Sequence record: MK047718.1
Source: Escherichia phage p000y
Direction: 5' to 3' (one strand)
DNA length: 64,000 nucleotides
Shown here: positions 14,538 through 56,686 of the stretch, piece by piece
How positions within the stretch are numbered: the first letter of the stretch is position 1
Layout: the number at the start of each line of letters is the position of its first letter
Notes under the pieces: generated by a model
Seen by the model: only the letters and a program-made list of their open reading frames with translations
What the model was told of the DNA's origin: nothing
The model's database searches: none
Program-made: the position numbers and the translations under genes

Positions 14538-15272
14538 ATGGAGCTAATCTTTTTAAGTGGCATCAAACGTAGTGGTAAAGACACTACTGCTGATTACATC
14601 AATTCAAACTTTAAATCCGTAAAATACCAATTGGCATATCCGATTAAAGACGCTCTAGCAATAGCCTGGGGACGTAGGCATGCTGAAAACCCTGATGTAT
14701 TCACAGAGTTGAAATACGAATACTTTGAAGGCATTGGATACGACCGTGAAACACCATTAAATCTCAATAAGTTGGATGTTATTGAATTATTGGAAGAAGC
14801 GCTAATTTATTTGCAAAGTCAATATTTACCAATTAATAATGTTAAAGTATTATCATCGTTAGAAGGTGGATATTCATATCTAGATATTAAACCATATGAA
14901 GCCCTGCGTGAAGCTATAAATAATATCAACGACACATGGTCAATCCGCCGTCTTATGCAAGCCCTCGGTACGGATGTTGTCGTTAATTTATTTGACCGTA
15001 TGTATTGGGTTAAGCTTTTTGCATTAAACTATATGGATTATATTGGAAGTGATTTCGATTACTATGTTGTAACCGATACACGCCAAGTCCATGAAATGGA
15101 AACCGCTAGAGCGATGGGTGCTACAGTTATTCATGTGGTTCGCTCTGGTACGGAATCCACCGATAAACATATTACAGAAGCTGGGTTGCCTATTGAAGAA
15201 GGCGATTTAGTTATTACAAACGACGGCTCTTTAGAAGAGCTTTATTCTAAAATTGAAACAATCTTAAGGTAA
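14538..15272 (+). CDS. 1: deoxynucleoside monophosphate kinase gp1
   Basis: 244 aa; P-loop GIKRSGKDT; size and position as T4 gp1. Confidence 0.88.
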   Translation: MELIFLSGIKRSGKDTTADYINSNFKSVKYQLAYPIKDALAIAWGRRHAENPDVFTELKYEYFEGIGYDRETPLNLNKLDVIELLEEALIYLQSQYLPINNVKVLSSLEGGYSYLDIKPYEALREAINNINDTWSIRRLMQALGTDVVVNLFDRMYWVKLFALNYMDYIGSDFDYYVVTDTRQVHEMETARAMGATVIHVVRSGTESTDKHITEAGLPIEEGDLVITNDGSLEELYSKIETILR

Positions 15273-16330: not shown

Positions 16331-16360
16331 GTTTACACGCTGATAGGACTATGTTATAGT
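16331..16360 (+). promoter_or_regulatory. early promoter cassette (GTTTACA ... TGtTATAGT) with flanking inverted repeat ATAGGACT/AGTCCTAT
   Basis: -35/-10 with 17-nt spacer; 8-bp inverted repeat brackets the -10. Confidence 0.6.
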
Positions 16361-16397
16361 AGTCCTATCAAAACAAATGAGTAAATGGAGAAATAAA

Positions 16398-26673: not shown

Positions 26674-27121
26674 GAAAAATAAAGTGAAAGAACTATCAGC
26701 CGGTATTATTTTCCTTACCGAAGATAAAGAATTATTCATGGGGCGTGTAACTGGTTCTCGTCCTAAAGGTGCATTAGCTCATCGGTGGGATATTCCTAAA
26801 GGACGTGTCGAGCCCGGTGAATCTCCTATTGAAGCCGCTATTCGCGAATGCGAAGAAGAAACTGGGTTTACACAATATGACCCTGCCTTCCTGAAAGACC
26901 TAGGTGAACATAATTACTCAGACAATAAGAATATTCATCTGTTCCTATATACCATCCCTGTAGAGCACGAGCAATTCAGAAACAGTGTTTGTAATTCATA
27001 TCATACATTCCCAGACGGACGACAGATTCCTGAATTTGATGCATTCGCTTTAATTAAACCTTCTCAATGGGAATATGTAATGGGCAAATCATTATATAAG
27101 GTGCTCACTACCCTCCTATAA
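26663..27121 (+). CDS. nudE: Nudix hydrolase NudE (e.1)
   Basis: 152 aa; Nudix box GRVEPGESPIEAAIRECEEETGF; position upstream of e as in T4. Confidence 0.85.
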   Translation: MMSKKNKVKELSAGIIFLTEDKELFMGRVTGSRPKGALAHRWDIPKGRVEPGESPIEAAIRECEEETGFTQYDPAFLKDLGEHNYSDNKNIHLFLYTIPVEHEQFRNSVCNSYHTFPDGRQIPEFDAFALIKPSQWEYVMGKSLYKVLTTLL

Positions 27122-27129
27122 GTAATAAA

Positions 27130-27153
27130 TACCTCCTATAAACGTGGGAGGTA
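27130..27153 (+). promoter_or_regulatory. hairpin sequestering the lysozyme SD, with late-promoter-like TATAAA in the loop
   Basis: Inverted repeat TACCTCC/GGAGGTA; 3' arm contains the e Shine-Dalgarno; same architecture as described for T4 e. Confidence 0.5.
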
Positions 27154-27155
27154 TT

Positions 27156-27644
27156 ATGAATATATTTGAAATGCTTCGTAATGACGAAGGTCTTAGACTG
27201 ACTTTATACAAAGACACCGAAGGCTTTTGGACGATTGGCATAGGCCATTTAGTAACAAAGAACCCGTCTTTAGCCGTAGCTAAAGCTGAACTTGACAGAA
27301 TGATCGGTCGTAAATGCAACGGTACAATTACCCTTGATGAGGCTGAAAAGCTATTTAATGAAGACGTTGATAAAGCCGTTCGCGGAATCTTGGGTAATGC
27401 TAAACTTAAACCGGTGTATGATTCTTTAGATGCGGTTCGTCGATGTGCATTGGTCAATATGGTCTTCCAAATGGGTGTAGCAGGCGTCGCCGGTTTTACT
27501 AATTCTCTTCGTATGCTTCAACAGAAACGTTGGGACGAAGCGGCAGTAAATCTAGCCCAATCTAAATGGTATCGTCAGACACCTAATCGCGCGAAACGCG
27601 TAATCTCAACATTTAAAACAGGAACTTGGAAAGCGTATATATGA
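27156..27644 (+). CDS. e: endolysin (T4-type lysozyme)
   Basis: [32 protein letters not shown]... near-identical to T4 lysozyme by recall; ATG 27156 inside track ORF 27144. Confidence 0.95.
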
Positions 27645-27922: not shown

Positions 27923-27924
27923 TG

Positions 27925-27953
27925 TTTACTTCCTCCAAGGATTTTGATACTAT
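27925..27953 (+). promoter_or_regulatory. early promoter (TTTACT, 17 nt, TACTAT) upstream of denV
   Basis: Read from sequence. Confidence 0.55.
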
Positions 27954-27980
27954 ACATTCATCAACTACTTGGAGGAAATT

Positions 27981-28394
27981 ATGACTCGTATCAATTTAAC
28001 ACTTGTTTCTGAACTGTCCGACCAACATCTTATGGCTGAGTATCGTGAATTACCACGCGTATTTGGTGCAGTCCGTAAACATGTTCAAAACGGTAAACGT
28101 GTAAAGGATTTTAAAATCTCTCCAACATTTATCTTAGGCACAGGTCACGTAACATTCTTTTACGACAAACTCGAATTTTTACGTTTACGTCAAATCGAGC
28201 TAATCGCTGAATGCTTGAAACGTGGTTTCAAAATCAAGGACACGACTGTCCAGGATATTTCCGACATTCCTGTAGAATTTCGTAATAATTACGTCCCGTC
28301 CGAAGCGTCCATTGCGATAAGTCAAGCACGCTTAGATGAAAAAATTGCTCAACGGCCGTCTTGGTACAAATACTATGGTAAATCAATTTACTAA
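27981..28394 (+). CDS. denV: endonuclease V (pyrimidine dimer DNA glycosylase)
   Basis: [12 protein letters not shown]...[16 protein letters not shown] near-identical to T4 DenV by recall; 137 aa. Confidence 0.93.
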
Positions 28395-31006: not shown

Positions 31007-31262
31007 AGATATTAAAGGCTACAAGCCACATACCGACGATAAAATCGGTAAAGTGAACGCTATTAAAGATGCAGAAGTCCGTCTTGGATTGTTGTTTGAT
31101 GCTCTGATTGAAGAAGCATATATCTTGAAAGAAAATGAAACAGAGCAACAAACCAAAGAAGATATGGATGCAGTACAGGCTCTTAAGTATGCTAAGCAAC
31201 ATCTAAAAGAAGCCAGCATGTGGGCCTGTCGTGCAGTATTTCGACCTGAGGAAAAATACTAA
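30996..31262 (+). CDS. hypothetical small helical protein
   Basis: ATG 30996 inside track ORF 30828; overlaps upstream stop. Confidence 0.5.
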
Positions 31263-31561
31263 TGGCTCAAATCCTATCAGGCTTTGGAACTCATTATGAA
31301 GCATCTAGACGCATAACTGAAAGCAATCCTTTTGGCCTTGTTCCGAAGCACAAGAAAATTCAAAGCCTTGATGACTTTGAGAACCGCCTATGGGCCCTCT
31401 TTAATGAGTACAAGGCGTATCTGAAAGAAGACGCTGACGATTGTCTTGAAGAAGATGAGATTGCGTATTACGAACAACGCCTTGAACAGCTCAAGAACTT
31501 CCATCAGGTTCGTGACGAAGTATCTAAAGCAGTTAAAAAGTTAATTCCTTTCAAAGAGTAG
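31262..31561 (+). CDS. hypothetical small helical protein
   Basis: 99-aa ORF. Confidence 0.6.
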
Positions 31562-31611
31562 TTTACTTCTCCTCTAGTTGTGTTACTATAGACTTGTCAA
31601 CTAGAGGAGAA
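31562..31611 (+). promoter_or_regulatory. early promoter (TTTACT, 16 nt, TACTAT) embedded in a perfect 14-bp inverted repeat that contains the regB Shine-Dalgarno
   Basis: Arms TTCTCCTCTAGTTG (31567-31580) and CAACTAGAGGAGAA (31598-31611) flank the -10. Confidence 0.6.
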
Positions 31612-31617
31612 ATCAAA

Positions 31618-32076
31618 ATGACTATCAATTCGGAAGTTTTTATCCGCCGTAATAAACTCCGTCGAATCTTTGAAACGGAGTTCCGCAAAATAAATGCCAG
31701 TATAAAAGATGCTGCAAAGTCTCTTGGACTACCAGGCTTTCATATCAAGTATTCTCAACATCTCTTAGATCGTGCCATCCAGAGAGAAATAGATGAGAAT
31801 TACGTTTTTGAATTATTTCATAAAGTAAAAAATCACGTTAAAGAAGTTGCAGAATTTTTATCAATGCCGGCACGTCCAGATGTTGATGAAGATTTTGTCG
31901 AAGGTGTCGAGTATCGTCCAGGCCGTTTAGAAATAACTGACGGAAATCTTTGGTTAGGACTTACAGTTTGTCGCGAAAATCCGGCATTCAAAATGAAGAC
32001 TCTTCAATGTAGAATGGCTATTATTAACAGTAAACGACTACCAGGAAAAGCTTCTAAAGCAGTGATTAAAATCTAG
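31618..32076 (+). CDS. regB: endoribonuclease RegB
   Basis: MTINSEVFIRRNKLRR...KYSQHLLDRAIQREIDE closely matches T4 RegB by recall; 152 aa. Confidence 0.9.
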   Translation: MTINSEVFIRRNKLRRIFETEFRKINASIKDAAKSLGLPGFHIKYSQHLLDRAIQREIDENYVFELFHKVKNHVKEVAEFLSMPARPDVDEDFVEGVEYRPGRLEITDGNLWLGLTVCRENPAFKMKTLQCRMAIINSKRLPGKASKAVIKI

Positions 32077-32084
32077 AGGTAAAC

Positions 32085-32627
32085 ATGAGAAAAGCACTAC
32101 TCGCTGGTCTATTTGCTCTTTCGTTATCAGCACATAGCTCCGAGCATACTTTTAGTAATGTCCAACTCGATAACTTGAATTATGCTTATCAGTTTGGGGA
32201 ACAGTTTTCTAAGGATGGAAAATTTAAAACGCATGAAAATATGCATAAGAAAGGACTTGGATACATAATGGCCGCAATACTATGGCAGGAATCATCTGCC
32301 GGTATTAATCTTAAAGATAAGAAAGGTCACCATGCGTATGGAATGTTCCAAAATTATCTACCAACAATGAGGGCAAGAATTAACCAACTTGGTTATAATA
32401 TGACTGATGCCCAAATTAAGAAAATGCTATCTAAGCGGTCTAATTCAGCCAGATGGGCTTATATCGAATTTTCTTATTGGTTAAATATACATAACGGGGA
32501 TATAAGAAAAGCTATATCCTCATATAATGCGGGATGGAAGACAAGTGCCGGAAGTAAATATGCTTCTGAAGTCCTAGAAAAGGCTAATTACCTTAAATCA
32601 AATAAACTACTGGAAATAAAAGAATGA
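32085..32627 (+). CDS. secreted lytic transglycosylase-like protein (SLT motifs)
   Basis: Signal peptide MRKALLAGLFALSLSA; SLT motifs WQESS, YGMFQ, SYNAG. Confidence 0.65.
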   Translation: MRKALLAGLFALSLSAHSSEHTFSNVQLDNLNYAYQFGEQFSKDGKFKTHENMHKKGLGYIMAAILWQESSAGINLKDKKGHHAYGMFQNYLPTMRARINQLGYNMTDAQIKKMLSKRSNSARWAYIEFSYWLNIHNGDIRKAISSYNAGWKTSAGSKYASEVLEKANYLKSNKLLEIKE

Positions 32628-35202: not shown

Positions 35203-35214
35203 GGCATCTATCAG

Positions 35215-35242
35215 TTTACTTCTCCTCAGGTTGTGTTATAGT
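35215..35242 (+). promoter_or_regulatory. early promoter (TTTACT, 16 nt, TATAGT)
   Basis: Immediately after terminator copy 3 (stem-loop + promoter cassette). Confidence 0.55.
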
Positions 35243-35269
35243 AAACCTTACTTACTAGAGGAGAACGTT

Positions 35270-35449
35270 ATGTCACGTAAAGAAAAAATTTCTAAGTTAA
35301 TGTTTTTGATTGAAGAGTACGCTAATGCGGTATCTGATTGGGAAAATGCTCATGGTTGCGAAGATGGAGACATCGACATTAACAGAGCTATGAAAAAGAT
35401 GGCCGAAGCCCACACCGAATTGCAAATGTATGTTAACGAGATTATGTGA
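35270..35449 (+). CDS. hypothetical protein (59 aa)
   Basis: ATG with GAGGAG SD inside track ORF 35201. Confidence 0.5.
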   Translation: MSRKEKISKLMFLIEEYANAVSDWENAHGCEDGDIDINRAMKKMAEAHTELQMYVNEIM

Positions 35450-45729: not shown

Positions 45730-45737
45730 TATAAATA
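45730..45737 (+). promoter_or_regulatory. late promoter TATAAATA upstream of gene 49
   Basis: Exact TATAAATA 30 nt upstream of the ATG. Confidence 0.6.
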
Positions 45738-49483: not shown

Positions 49484-49803
49484 ATCCCATTTCTAATATA
49501 ATCTATTGGAACCCTCACTTCACTATCTCCTTGTGCCCCTCTCAAATCAAAAATATTTTCATAAAACAGTTTACATCCTCAATAGATGTGTTAAGATTAA
49601 ACCATCTACTATAGAGGAAAATAAAATGACAATTGAAGATAAAGAATTAAGGTCGACCAGTACTATTCTGTCAACGGTAATGCAGTACAGATAACCAGAG
49701 TTTCAAGCCTGGATGTTTGGTACCGTTCAATCAAATATCCAGAAATTGGTGAAATGCTTTGTGACCGTGGTATCTTCTGTTCAATTGCGAAGGAAATTAA
49801 GCC

Positions 49804-55001: not shown

Positions 55002-56686
55002 AATCATTTAAATTAAATCGTGTTCGTTATCAAAACATCATGTCGGTAGGTGGGAATCCTATTGATATCCAATTAGATAAAGTCCAAAAGACATTAATCA
55101 CTGGTAAAAATGGCGGTGGTAAATCTACGATGTTAGAAGCCATTACTTTCGGACTTTTCGGTAAACCATTTCGTGATGTTAAGAAAGGACAAATCATTAA
55201 TAGCACGAACAAGAAAGAGCTCTTAGTTGAGCTTTGGATGGAATTCGATGATAAAAAATACTTCATTAAACGTGGCCAAAAGCCCAATATTTTCGAAATC
55301 TCCGTTGACGGTGTTCGTCTTGATGAATCTGCCAGCAGTCGCGACTTCCAAGAAGAATTTGAACGTAGCATCGGAATGTCATACGCGTCTTTTAAACAGA
55401 TCGTTGTGCTTGGGACGGCAGGGTATACCCCTTTCATGGCTCTTAGCACCCCTGCTCGCAGAAAGCTTGTTGAAGACTTATTAGAAGTTGGAACACTCGC
55501 TGAAATGGATAAAATCAATAAGTCTCAAGTTCGAGAACTTAATTCCCAGGGGCAAGTTCTCGATGCCAAGAAAGATGGTATTATCCAACAAATTAAGATT
55601 TATAACGAGAATATCGAACGTCAAAAGAAATTATCTGGCGATAATGTAGCGCGTCTACAGAATATGTATGACGACCTAGCCAAAGAAGCTCGTTCATTAA
55701 AAGCAGAAATCGAAGAAGCTAATGAGCGACTACTTAATATCGTTCTTGATGAAGACCCTACTGAGGCATTCAATAAGATAGGACAAGAAGCATTCTTGAT
55801 TAAATCTAAAATTGACTCATATAACAAAGTTATTAAGATGTATCATGATGGCGGTACATGTCCTACTTGCGCATCACAGTTGCACCAGGGTGATCCTATT
55901 GTCTCTAAGATTACCGATAAGCTTCATGAATGTAATCACTCATTCGAGCAACTTACCTGCCACAGAGATAATCTGAGTGTCCTAGTGGACGAATATAGAG
56001 CTAATGTTAAGACTAAGCAGGACCTTGCATCTGATATTCGTACCAAGAAACAAGCAATGATTGCCACTATTGATAAAGCTAAGAAAGTTAAAGCTGCAAT
56101 AGAGCAAGCCTCGGCAGAATTTATCGACCATGCCGATGAGATAGCTTTGCTTCAAAAAGAACTTGATAAAATCATTAAAACAAAATCAGATATCGTTCTT
56201 GAAAAATACCATCGTGGTATTATCACAGATATGTTAAAAGATTCTGGTATTAAAGGTGCTATCATTAAAAAATATGTGCCTCTGTTCAACAAGCAGATTA
56301 ACCATTACCTTAAAATCATGGAAGCTGATTACGTGTTTTCTATTGATGAAGAATTCAATGAATCTATAAAATCACGTGGCCGTGAAGAGTTCAGTTATGC
56401 TTCATTTAGTCAAGGTGAAAAGGCACGTATCGATATCGCATTGTTGTTTACATGGCGAGATATTGCTGAAAAAGTTTCCGGTGTTAAAATCAACACGTTG
56501 ATTCTTGATGAGGTTTTTGATGGGGCAGTTGATTCTGAAGCTGTTAAGGCTATAGATACCATTCTTGGAAGTTTACAAAATACTAACGTGTTCATTATCT
56601 CTCATCGAGACCATGACCCTCAACGTTATGGACAACATCTTCAGATGAGTAAAGTTGGACGATTTACTGTGATGACTGTTTCATAA
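54998..56686 (+). CDS. 46: recombination endonuclease subunit gp46 (Rad50-like ATPase)
   Basis: 562 aa; Walker A GKNGGGKST, central coiled coil with CPTC hook, C-terminal signature/Walker B. Confidence 0.93.
   Translation: MKSFKLNRVRYQNIMSVGGNPIDIQLDKVQKTLITGKNGGGKSTMLEAITFGLFGKPFRDVKKGQIINSTNKKELLVELWMEFDDKKYFIKRGQKPNIFEISVDGVRLDESASSRDFQEEFERSIGMSYASFKQIVVLGTAGYTPFMALSTPARRKLVEDLLEVGTLAEMDKINKSQVRELNSQGQVLDAKKDGIIQQIKIYNENIERQKKLSGDNVARLQNMYDDLAKEARSLKAEIEEANERLLNIVLDEDPTEAFNKIGQEAFLIKSKIDSYNKVIKMYHDGGTCPTCASQLHQGDPIVSKITDKLHECNHSFEQLTCHRDNLSVLVDEYRANVKTKQDLASDIRTKKQAMIATIDKAKKVKAAIEQASAEFIDHADEIALLQKELDKIIKTKSDIVLEKYHRGIITDMLKDSGIKGAIIKKYVPLFNKQINHYLKIMEADYVFSIDEEFNESIKSRGREEFSYASFSQGEKARIDIALLFTWRDIAEKVSGVKINTLILDEVFDGAVDSEAVKAIDTILGSLQNTNVFIISHRDHDPQRYGQHLQMSKVGRFTVMTVS

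Follow-up and report, generated by a model that had tools for sequence, protein, structure and literature searches.

In Escherichia phage p000y (sequence record MK047718.1), of which a stretch of 64,000 nucleotides (termed here the window) was analyzed, the gene regB is preceded by a perfect 14-base-pair (bp) inverted repeat, one arm of which lies within the spacer of the regB promoter and the other across the regB Shine-Dalgarno sequence. This element is most likely a real, selected RNA switch that restricts translation of RegB to RNA begun at the proximal promoter and that shields read-through RNA--that is, RNA begun at promoters further upstream--from cleavage by RegB; the probability that the repeat encodes an RNA hairpin serving as a transcript-specific translational gate is put at roughly two in three. 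Computed directly here are the repeat itself, its overlap both with the promoter and with the ribosome-binding site, a folding asymmetry between the two kinds of transcript, and a pairing that related phages conserve by compensatory change. By homology with phage T4, the promoter is probably active and transcription probably starts near position 31596.

The source genome is that of a Mosigvirus (RB69-like), whose regB region is 99.6% identical to those of phages vB_EcoM_NBG1 and JK36; near-identical records spanning at least 80% of positions 31200-32100 number 74 of 157. The locus is made up of the following features:

31262-31561, + strand: vs.3-like upstream open reading frame of 99 amino acids (from the list of open reading frames), the C-terminus of which resembles T4 vs.3
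31561-31566, + strand: -35 hexamer GTTTAC of a T4-type early promoter, assigned from its sequence motif
31567-31580, + strand: 5' arm TTCTCCTCTAGTTG, within the promoter spacer and complementary to the regB Shine-Dalgarno sequence
31581-31597, + strand: loop of 17 nucleotides, holding the extended -10 element (TG at 31581-31582, TACTAT at 31584-31589) and the predicted start site
31598-31611, + strand: 3' arm CAACTAGAGGAGAA, within the 5' untranslated region and holding the Shine-Dalgarno sequence GAGGAG (31604-31609) and the RegB tetranucleotide GGAG (31606-31609)
31606-31616, + strand: candidate RegB/S1 target GGAGAAATCAA of 11 nucleotides, the first 6 of which are paired in the read-through hairpin
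31618-32076, + strand: regB coding sequence (152 amino acids plus stop), encoding a RegB 99.3% identical to that of RB69 and 78% identical to that of T4

The regB promoter consists of GTTTAC, 17 nucleotides and a TACTAT preceded by TGn, which is the T4-type early motif. Its assignment is based upon this motif and the conservation of the motif rather than upon a generic sigma-70 scan, which omitted the promoter because it matches 8 of the 12 E. coli consensus positions; in the regB loci of T4-like phages the -35 and -10 elements are nearly invariant (GTGTAC occurs in locus L062) and their spacing is kept. The TAG stop codon of the vs.3-like frame (31559-31561) shares its last base with the first base of the -35 hexamer, and this frame, together with the region upstream of it, is the putative source of the read-through context for regB. 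The 5' arm fills the spacer immediately past the -35 hexamer and occurs only in RNA from upstream promoters. Transcription from the regB promoter itself is predicted to start at about G31596, the seventh nucleotide past the -10 element and 2 nucleotides 5' of the 3' arm, which yields a leader of 22 nucleotides; in it GAGGAG is followed by 8 nucleotides and then by the regB ATG (31618-31620). A first-pass annotation of this DNA had described both a perfect 14-bp repeat flanking the -10 element and a 3' arm carrying GAGGAG 8 nucleotides before the ATG: the arm coordinates, read directly, are exact, and the sequence agrees as to the second point. The late-promoter motif TATAAATA was not found near 31560-31620, and between the early promoters at 27924 and 28666 and regB there is no convincing + strand terminator, the one weak match (5 pairs) lying within a coding region.

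Among perfect inverted repeats with loops of 3-40 nucleotides, the regB repeat is the longest in the window and the sole one of at least 12 bp; a repeat finder extends it to 19 nucleotides at 89% complementarity (31562-31580/31598-31616). First-order Markov simulations of the window contained on average 0.23 repeats of at least 12 bp each. A chance origin was ruled out, since none of these simulations (n = 100) reached 14 bp; an intrinsic terminator on either strand is unlikely as well, the stem having no T-run and going unflagged by terminator scans. No Rfam family matched the element at E ≤ 1.

When read-through RNA is folded in a context of 121 nucleotides, the minimum-energy structure and the centroid structure are both this hairpin, which covers 31598-31611 and has a z-score of -3.46, with none of 200 shuffles folding as stably; the isolated hairpin has a free energy of -20.7 to -21.6 kcal/mol. 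RNA starting at 31596 forms no significant structure over the regB ribosome site. Accessibility was quantified as an opening cost, defined as the free energy needed to make positions -14 to +6 single-stranded, which for regB is 17.3 kcal/mol in read-through RNA versus 3.1 kcal/mol in promoter-proximal RNA--an asymmetry that the first-pass annotation had anticipated. This cost ranks third among the 91 putative + strand genes of the window, most of which fall at about 2-9 kcal/mol. The annotation had also compared regB with the lysozyme gene e, the case established by experiment in T4, where the same logic was said to apply at 27130-27153; a hairpin is indeed present there (27128-27155), with an opening cost of 17.5 kcal/mol, equal to that of regB, and as an equilibrium prediction the analogy holds quantitatively.

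The arms of the e hairpin (27128-27155) are AATACCTCCTAT and GTGGGAGGTATT, and nearby (27100-27160) occur the late-promoter-like sequences TAATAAATA and TATAAAC, which differ from an exact TATAAATA. Strongly sequestered ribosome sites in upstream-initiated RNA were also seen for the starts at 14538, 51957, 45767 and 34866 (19.7, 16.1, 13.8 and 12.9 kcal/mol, respectively). Because TATAAATA occurs at 45730, just 5' of the 45767 gene, a late gate of the e/soc type is suggested there.

The regB loci compared here were drawn from annotated phage genomes and from IMG/VR, and provide 49 distinct upstream sequences. Across them the -35 and -10 elements are kept, spacer and leader vary in concert, and the paired arms take these forms:

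Mosigvirus: 5' arm TTCTCCTCTAGTTG, 3' arm CAACTAGAGGAGAA
T4: 5' arm TTTTCCTCTTGACTG, 3' arm CAGTTAAGAGGAGAA, with two G-U pairs
S16-like: 5' arm TTTCTCCTCTTTATG, 3' arm CATAAAGAGGAGAAA
Dhakavirus: 5' arm ATCTCCTGTAG, 3' arm CTACAGGAGAT
L012 type: 5' arm TCTCCTGTAAG, 3' arm CTTACAGGAGA
L046 type: 5' arm ATCTCCTTTTAGT, 3' arm ACTAAAAGGAGAT
L056: 5' arm ATCCTCATTTG, 3' arm CAAATGAGGAT
L059: 5' arm CCTCCTTT, 3' arm AAAGGAGG

A plain MAFFT alignment of the promoter-to-ATG regions left the arms out of register, and a covariance-model alignment and a swap test were used instead. In the swap test, which is alignment-free, the pre-start segment of each of 15 lineages was paired with the leader of every lineage: cognate spacer/leader duplexes averaged -15.9 kcal/mol versus -10.0 kcal/mol for non-cognate duplexes, none of 100,000 permutations did as well (p < 1e-5), and the cognate partner came first in both directions in 8 of the 15 lineages. 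In the covariance-model alignment of 25 regB loci (23 of them distinct) 93.1% of the cells are paired, versus 76.9% for column shuffles (none of 500 reaching the observed value) and 40-53% after sliding of the partner; both sides have changed in 9 of the 14 pairs, and the covariation score is 0.377 versus 0.109. RNAalifold, independently, predicts 12 pairs, 8 of them compensatory. The covariation reaches into the Shine-Dalgarno sequence itself: TCCTCA pairs with TGAGGA in L056, CCTCC with GGAGG in L059, and TCTCC with GGAGA elsewhere. These comparative data strongly support selection for pairing between the regB arms.

Sequestration, when defined as a difference of at least 7 kcal/mol between read-through and proximal RNA, was found in 12 of the 18 promoter-bearing regB lineages versus 2 of 25 other early-promoter genes taken from the window and from T4 (1-50 kb; Fisher p = 7e-5). 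These lineages do not all use the same arms. In Gaprivervirus and Tegunavirus the complementarity between spacer and Shine-Dalgarno sequence is absent, and the -10 region instead pairs with the Shine-Dalgarno sequence, the AUG and the first codons, which raises the opening cost in read-through RNA to 16.3 and 13.8 kcal/mol, respectively, against about 3-4 kcal/mol in proximal RNA; these alternative arms are counted here as convergence on hiding the regB start. RB49-like phages and PspYZU05 have neither a proximal promoter nor promoter-spacer pairing; the opening cost of regB is 2.7-4.1 kcal/mol in the former and, because of a tetraloop hairpin just upstream of the GGAG, either 3.1 or 9.4 kcal/mol in the latter, depending on the region opened.

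The product of the gene bears on what such a hairpin might accomplish. RegB switches off many T4 early mRNAs, and its dose is limited by promoter shut-off and by self-cleavage. The RegB/S1 site comprises 11 single-stranded nucleotides, GGAGRAYARAA; structure inhibits RegB, 16 structured GGAG sites in T4 resist it, and good T4 substrates never have C at position 9 (PMC1702504). T4 regB itself has an early promoter, and RegB cuts the Shine-Dalgarno sequence of its own mRNA, efficiently when that sequence is accessible (PMC3014915); such cleavage is reported for relatives of T4 as well (PMC3014915, citing Piesiniene et al. 2004). The suggestion, made in the first-pass annotation, that the p000y site is an autoregulatory target of RegB fits this precedent; less favourable is the local site, since GGAGAAATCAA departs from the T4 RegB/S1 consensus, agreeing with GGAGRAYARAA at 8 of 11 positions and having C at position 9. 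By analogy with T4, autoregulation in p000y is plausible. Moreover, GGAGAAATCAA is single-stranded only in proximal RNA: because its GGAG is double-stranded within the hairpin, read-through RNA should resist RegB, and autoregulation would hence act only on proximal transcripts. The only further GGAG in the window's regB (31677-31680) is located within a perfect 8-bp hairpin, AACTCCGT/ACGGAGTT (31655-31682). Inside T4 regB there are three GGAGs, in agreement with the three weak internal cuts by RegB that have been reported in T4.

Early transcripts commonly run on into downstream genes (PMC2988021). In the mechanism proposed here, polymerase from upstream early promoters (denV and the vs.8-vs.3 region) would copy the promoter spacer and, 17 nucleotides later, the 5' untranslated region, and the two would pair immediately, forming a 14-bp helix with a free energy of about -21 kcal/mol; since this helix would bury the regB Shine-Dalgarno sequence, 30S subunits could not bind the read-through RNA. 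RNA from the gene's own promoter would start about 2 nucleotides before the 3' arm and thus be without the 5' arm, so that its 22-nucleotide leader would leave the Shine-Dalgarno sequence open, and RegB synthesis would be confined to the immediate-early burst of that promoter. Because RegB and S1 need a single-stranded 11-nucleotide site, only these proximal, translatable transcripts would be self-cleaved; polycistronic read-through RNA would yield no RegB and would also be protected against cleavage at the regB leader. Either of these two consequences, the gate or the shield, may be the one selected.

The element must also be viewed against what Arbiol et al. (2010, PMC2839356) and Comeau et al. 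(2014, PMC4122927) described in T4-like phages as promoter-early stem-loop (PeSL) cassettes. The stems of these cassettes are interpreted there as ending or attenuating transcription and as sites of recombination, one RB49 stem having lowered expression of a downstream lacZ as a strong terminator does. The T4-group consensus, as given in PMC4122927, is an intergenic, sigma-70-like TTTACW, about 17 nucleotides and TAYWAT, followed by a Shine-Dalgarno sequence and a start codon. The regB locus fits this layout, with TTTACT, 16 nucleotides, TACTAT, and GAGGAG and ATG within 60 nucleotides, together with an associated stem-loop; like PeSL cassettes, moreover, elements of this kind are present in many copies per genome and occur at gene-replacement junctions. 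Sequestration of the ribosome site is not discussed in the searched parts of PMC2839356 and PMC4122927. On the + strand of the window there are 19 GTTTAC-type early promoters, nearly all with an inverted repeat that flanks or overlaps the -10 element, as for example GATAGGACTAT/ATAGTCCTATC at 16341-16370 (promoter 16331). In most of these generic stems the 3' arm ends at about +3, so that the two arms occur together only in read-through transcripts and the ribosome site is left open. Judged from their sequences, the -10 stem-loops of the window look like PeSL stem-loops. Promoters with such repeats include:

15976, 16331, 23334, 24629, 35663, 39834, 50270 and 50695, + strand: starts of GTTTAC promoters with a repeat at the -10 element

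Cassettes move between genes. Among closely related Mosigviruses the gene directly 5' of regB is vs.3-like in the window, ORF117c in RB69 and vs.4-like in ESCO47, and the sequences become homologous again at the -35 hexamer or just before it (window 31500-31566 versus 1380-1444 of the RB69 locus, L018, and 480-544 of the ESCO47 locus, L019), as would be expected from recombination at a promoter cassette. Near-identical cassettes also precede different genes, that of T4 denV being identical at 49 of 51 positions to that of regB in the Dhakavirus Bp7. Between the related Salmonella phages of the S16-like (L009) and CGG4-1 (L010) types, a change of TT to GG in the 5' arm breaks two pairs, the opening cost falls from 21 to 13.6 kcal/mol, and the sequence upstream of the promoter differs as well; this difference may reflect a recombination junction inside the cassette.

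Several other explanations for the regB repeat were weighed against a translational gate. The hairpin might chiefly be a shield against RegB, with the paired GGAG sparing polycistronic RNA and so keeping downstream genes such as vs.1, vs and tk.4 expressed, and with the loss of regB translation a side effect. This is possible but somewhat unlikely: it accords with the need of RegB/S1 for a single-stranded site, with the resistance of structured T4 sites (PMC1702504), with the placement of the first 6 of the 11 nucleotides in the stem and with the efficient cleavage of the accessible GGAG of T4 regB mRNA (PMC3014915), but the pairing in Gaprivervirus and Tegunavirus covers the AUG and first codons, as is needed for blocking translation and not for protecting a GGAG; L056, the Shine-Dalgarno sequence of which is GAGGAU and contains no GGAG, nevertheless keeps an 11-bp helix; and the local RegB site, with its C at position 9, is sub-optimal. 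A shield and a translational gate are, in any case, not mutually exclusive. Alternatively, the repeat might be a generic PeSL stem-loop, selected because it attenuates upstream transcription or promotes recombination (or both), its overlap with the Shine-Dalgarno sequence being incidental. What speaks for this is the general occurrence of repeats around the -10 element at GTTTAC promoters, the matches of the regB covariance model to other promoters of the window (49569, 19463, 35214, 39834, 27924 and 24629), the terminator-like behavior described for the RB49 stem (PMC2839356, PMC4122927), the divergence 5' of the -35 hexamer among the window, RB69 and ESCO47, and the resemblance of the T4 denV and Bp7 regB cassettes. 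It is nonetheless improbable, for the regB stem spans the spacer and the Shine-Dalgarno sequence, has no U-tract and is not called terminator-like; generic stems leave the ribosome site open (difference about 0) despite an equal leader of 21-22 nucleotides, whereas the regB stem is displaced outward; and coverage of the ribosome site is concentrated in regB lineages, including those with non-homologous arms. Karamvirus (CC31-like) and Jiaodavirus, moreover, have an inner, generic stem around the -10 element plus a short outer pairing with the Shine-Dalgarno sequence, which implies that the two features are separable.

Still less probable is translational coupling or re-initiation, whereby the folded hairpin would bring the vs.3 stop codon (31559-31561) within about 11 single-stranded nucleotides of the regB AUG; ribosomes ending on vs.3 could then start again at regB, or melt the base of the stem, and so allow a low, coupled translation of regB on long RNAs. 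In many lineages the upstream stop codon is indeed located 5-10 nucleotides before the 5' arm, often overlapping the -35 hexamer as TAGTTTAC, and the 3' arm ends 3-6 nucleotides before the AUG. A ribosome, however, unwinds mRNA at about +11 from its P site; when the stop codon occupies the A site this point falls at 31566, just before the first base of the stem, and so the helix need not open. The lack of conservation of the upstream gene likewise argues against a specific coupled pair. Finally, the repeat might act as a palindrome in DNA, either as an operator for a dimeric protein or as a cruciform, and control the early promoter, for instance during early shut-off. Its overlap with the promoter, the repeats at many other early promoters, the fact that early-promoter shut-off in T4 is not understood (PMC3014915, PMC2988021) and a G-U strand test that gave no proof of selection on the sense RNA are all compatible with this; but the arm sequences differ wholly between lineages and between promoters while their complementarity is kept, which is the signature of a nucleic-acid helix and not of a protein site, a 17-nucleotide loop disfavours extrusion of a cruciform, the G-U pairs of the T4 and ESCO47 stems become A-C mismatches on the other strand, and the 3' arm always coincides with the ribosome site. 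Such a role is therefore very doubtful. The terminator, DNA-operator, coupling and chance explanations are, in sum, less likely than a translational gate.

A number of observations nevertheless weigh against that gate. Sequestration is weak in Karamvirus (CC31-like) and Jiaodavirus, with differences of 2-4 kcal/mol, and L064, L065 and L070 have a stem around the -10 element only and no sequestration. The repeats at most early promoters miss the Shine-Dalgarno sequence, and so the stem-loops must have another general role, to which the overlap in regB could be secondary. The structure was used in fitting the covariation alignment, the cells of which are not independent evolutionary events; moreover, because cassettes have been swapped between genes, some of the seemingly compensatory variation at regB may reflect cassette replacement rather than change in place. 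(By either route, a cassette type that covers the Shine-Dalgarno sequence is what regB retains.) The G-U test singled out neither strand as the selected one: sense minus antisense averages -0.25 kcal/mol, with T4 and ESCO47 favouring sense and L062 and L041 antisense. The thermodynamic folds leave out both ribosomes and co-transcriptional kinetics. Lastly, the transcription start, the read-through RNA and the yields from the two transcripts, and with them the translational block and the shielding from RegB, are all inferred.

The gating principle itself is already textbook for T4 genes, as reviewed in PMC3014915: the gene e has a translation-initiation hairpin (McPheeters et al. 1986), hairpins of the same class are reported in soc, 49 and I-TevI, and the promoters of all four are late ones. 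In regB the design would be combined with an early promoter, which would not surprise a T4 specialist. As in the e-type genes, the Shine-Dalgarno sequence of regB is held in a helix whose 5' strand lies on the upstream side of an embedded promoter, so that long transcripts are untranslatable (for regB, by prediction) and proximal transcripts have no 5' strand. The differences are that the structure encloses a sigma-70 early promoter (GTTTAC, 17 nucleotides, TACTAT) rather than a late gp55 promoter (TATAAATA), that the spacer of this promoter itself forms the 5' arm, and that the gated product is a nuclease that, as in T4, would also cleave the very Shine-Dalgarno sequence concerned. With an early promoter in it, the regB gate would confine expression to the first minutes of infection, where a late promoter puts it off until the late period. 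Closer in purpose are the hairpins of mobE in Aeromonas phage Aeh1 and of I-TevI, which similarly limit synthesis of a potentially harmful nuclease from upstream-initiated RNA (Gibb and Edgell 2009, 2010, as described in PMC3014915), but these nucleases are homing endonucleases, and the class and position of the promoter differ. The self-cleavage known for T4 RegB (Sanson and Uzan 1993 and Piesiniene et al. 2004, both as covered in PMC3014915) involves the same gene, an early promoter and a Shine-Dalgarno GGAG followed by an A-rich tail, as in the window; it is, however, control by a trans-acting nuclease, whereas the hairpin is cis-acting and would exempt read-through RNA.

A literature search linked no ribosome-site hairpin to regB; early primary papers were outside its reach, and so an earlier description is possible. 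Valerie et al., in 1986, reportedly drew attention to potential stem-loops before ipIII, ipII, denV and 'orf61.9', the last of which is presumably regB. The literature covered by the search (including PMC3014915, PMC1702504 and PMC2988021) deals, as regards regB, only with the early promoter and self-cleavage. If the proposal is true, then a conserved, cis-acting gate forms a third layer of RegB control; it would account for the restriction of regB expression to an immediate-early burst even though the gene is part of a long early/middle transcription unit; it would provide a functional reading for some PeSL cassettes, which until now have been seen as terminators or recombination sites; and it would predict which GGAG sites on long transcripts escape RegB.

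A minority of cassettes other than that of regB also bury the Shine-Dalgarno sequence, namely those of denV (in the window and in T4), those at 35214 and 49569, and that of T4 modB. It is tentatively proposed that the regB hairpin is the clearest member of a sub-class of portable T-even early-promoter cassettes in which the spacer serves as the anti-Shine-Dalgarno strand, such that a rule--translate only from one's own promoter--would travel with the shuffled cassette; this is somewhat less probable than not. At ribosome sites of the GGAG type such a helix would, on this reading, divide an mRNA into a pool that can be translated and is RegB-sensitive and another that is silent and RegB-resistant. 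Other members may include denV, T4 modB, in part motB.2, and the cassettes at 35214 and 49569 of the window.

The promoter and leader of denV in the window (27924-27983) contain a perfect 10-bp repeat, TTCCTCCAAG (27930-27939) and CTTGGAGGAA (27968-27977), over the denV Shine-Dalgarno sequence, with an opening cost of 11.9 kcal/mol in read-through and 3.9 kcal/mol in proximal RNA; in T4 denV (L079) an equivalent stem is built from other sequences, TCTCCTGTAG/CTACAGGAGA, with a cost of 12.4 kcal/mol. Within the cassette at 35214-35272, upstream of a 59-amino-acid open reading frame, the spacer is almost identical to that of regB and pairs with the Shine-Dalgarno sequence through TTCTCCTC/GAGGAGAA and AGGTT/AACCT; within that at 49569-49638, upstream of a 22-amino-acid open reading frame, the corresponding pairing is TCCTC/GAGGA plus TAGATG/CATCTA. 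In T4 (L080, around 13186 and 8218) the modB leader is sequestered in read-through context, its -10 element TATGAT pairing with ATCATG at the start codon for a difference of 10.7 kcal/mol, and the motB.2 leader is partly sequestered (5.6 kcal/mol); both modB and motB.2 have been named as RegB substrates affected by structure (PMC1702504). Elsewhere in the window, and away from any early promoter, a perfect 10-bp inverted repeat with a 13-nucleotide loop, TCGAGAACTT/AAGTTCTCGA, occurs at 55531-55563.

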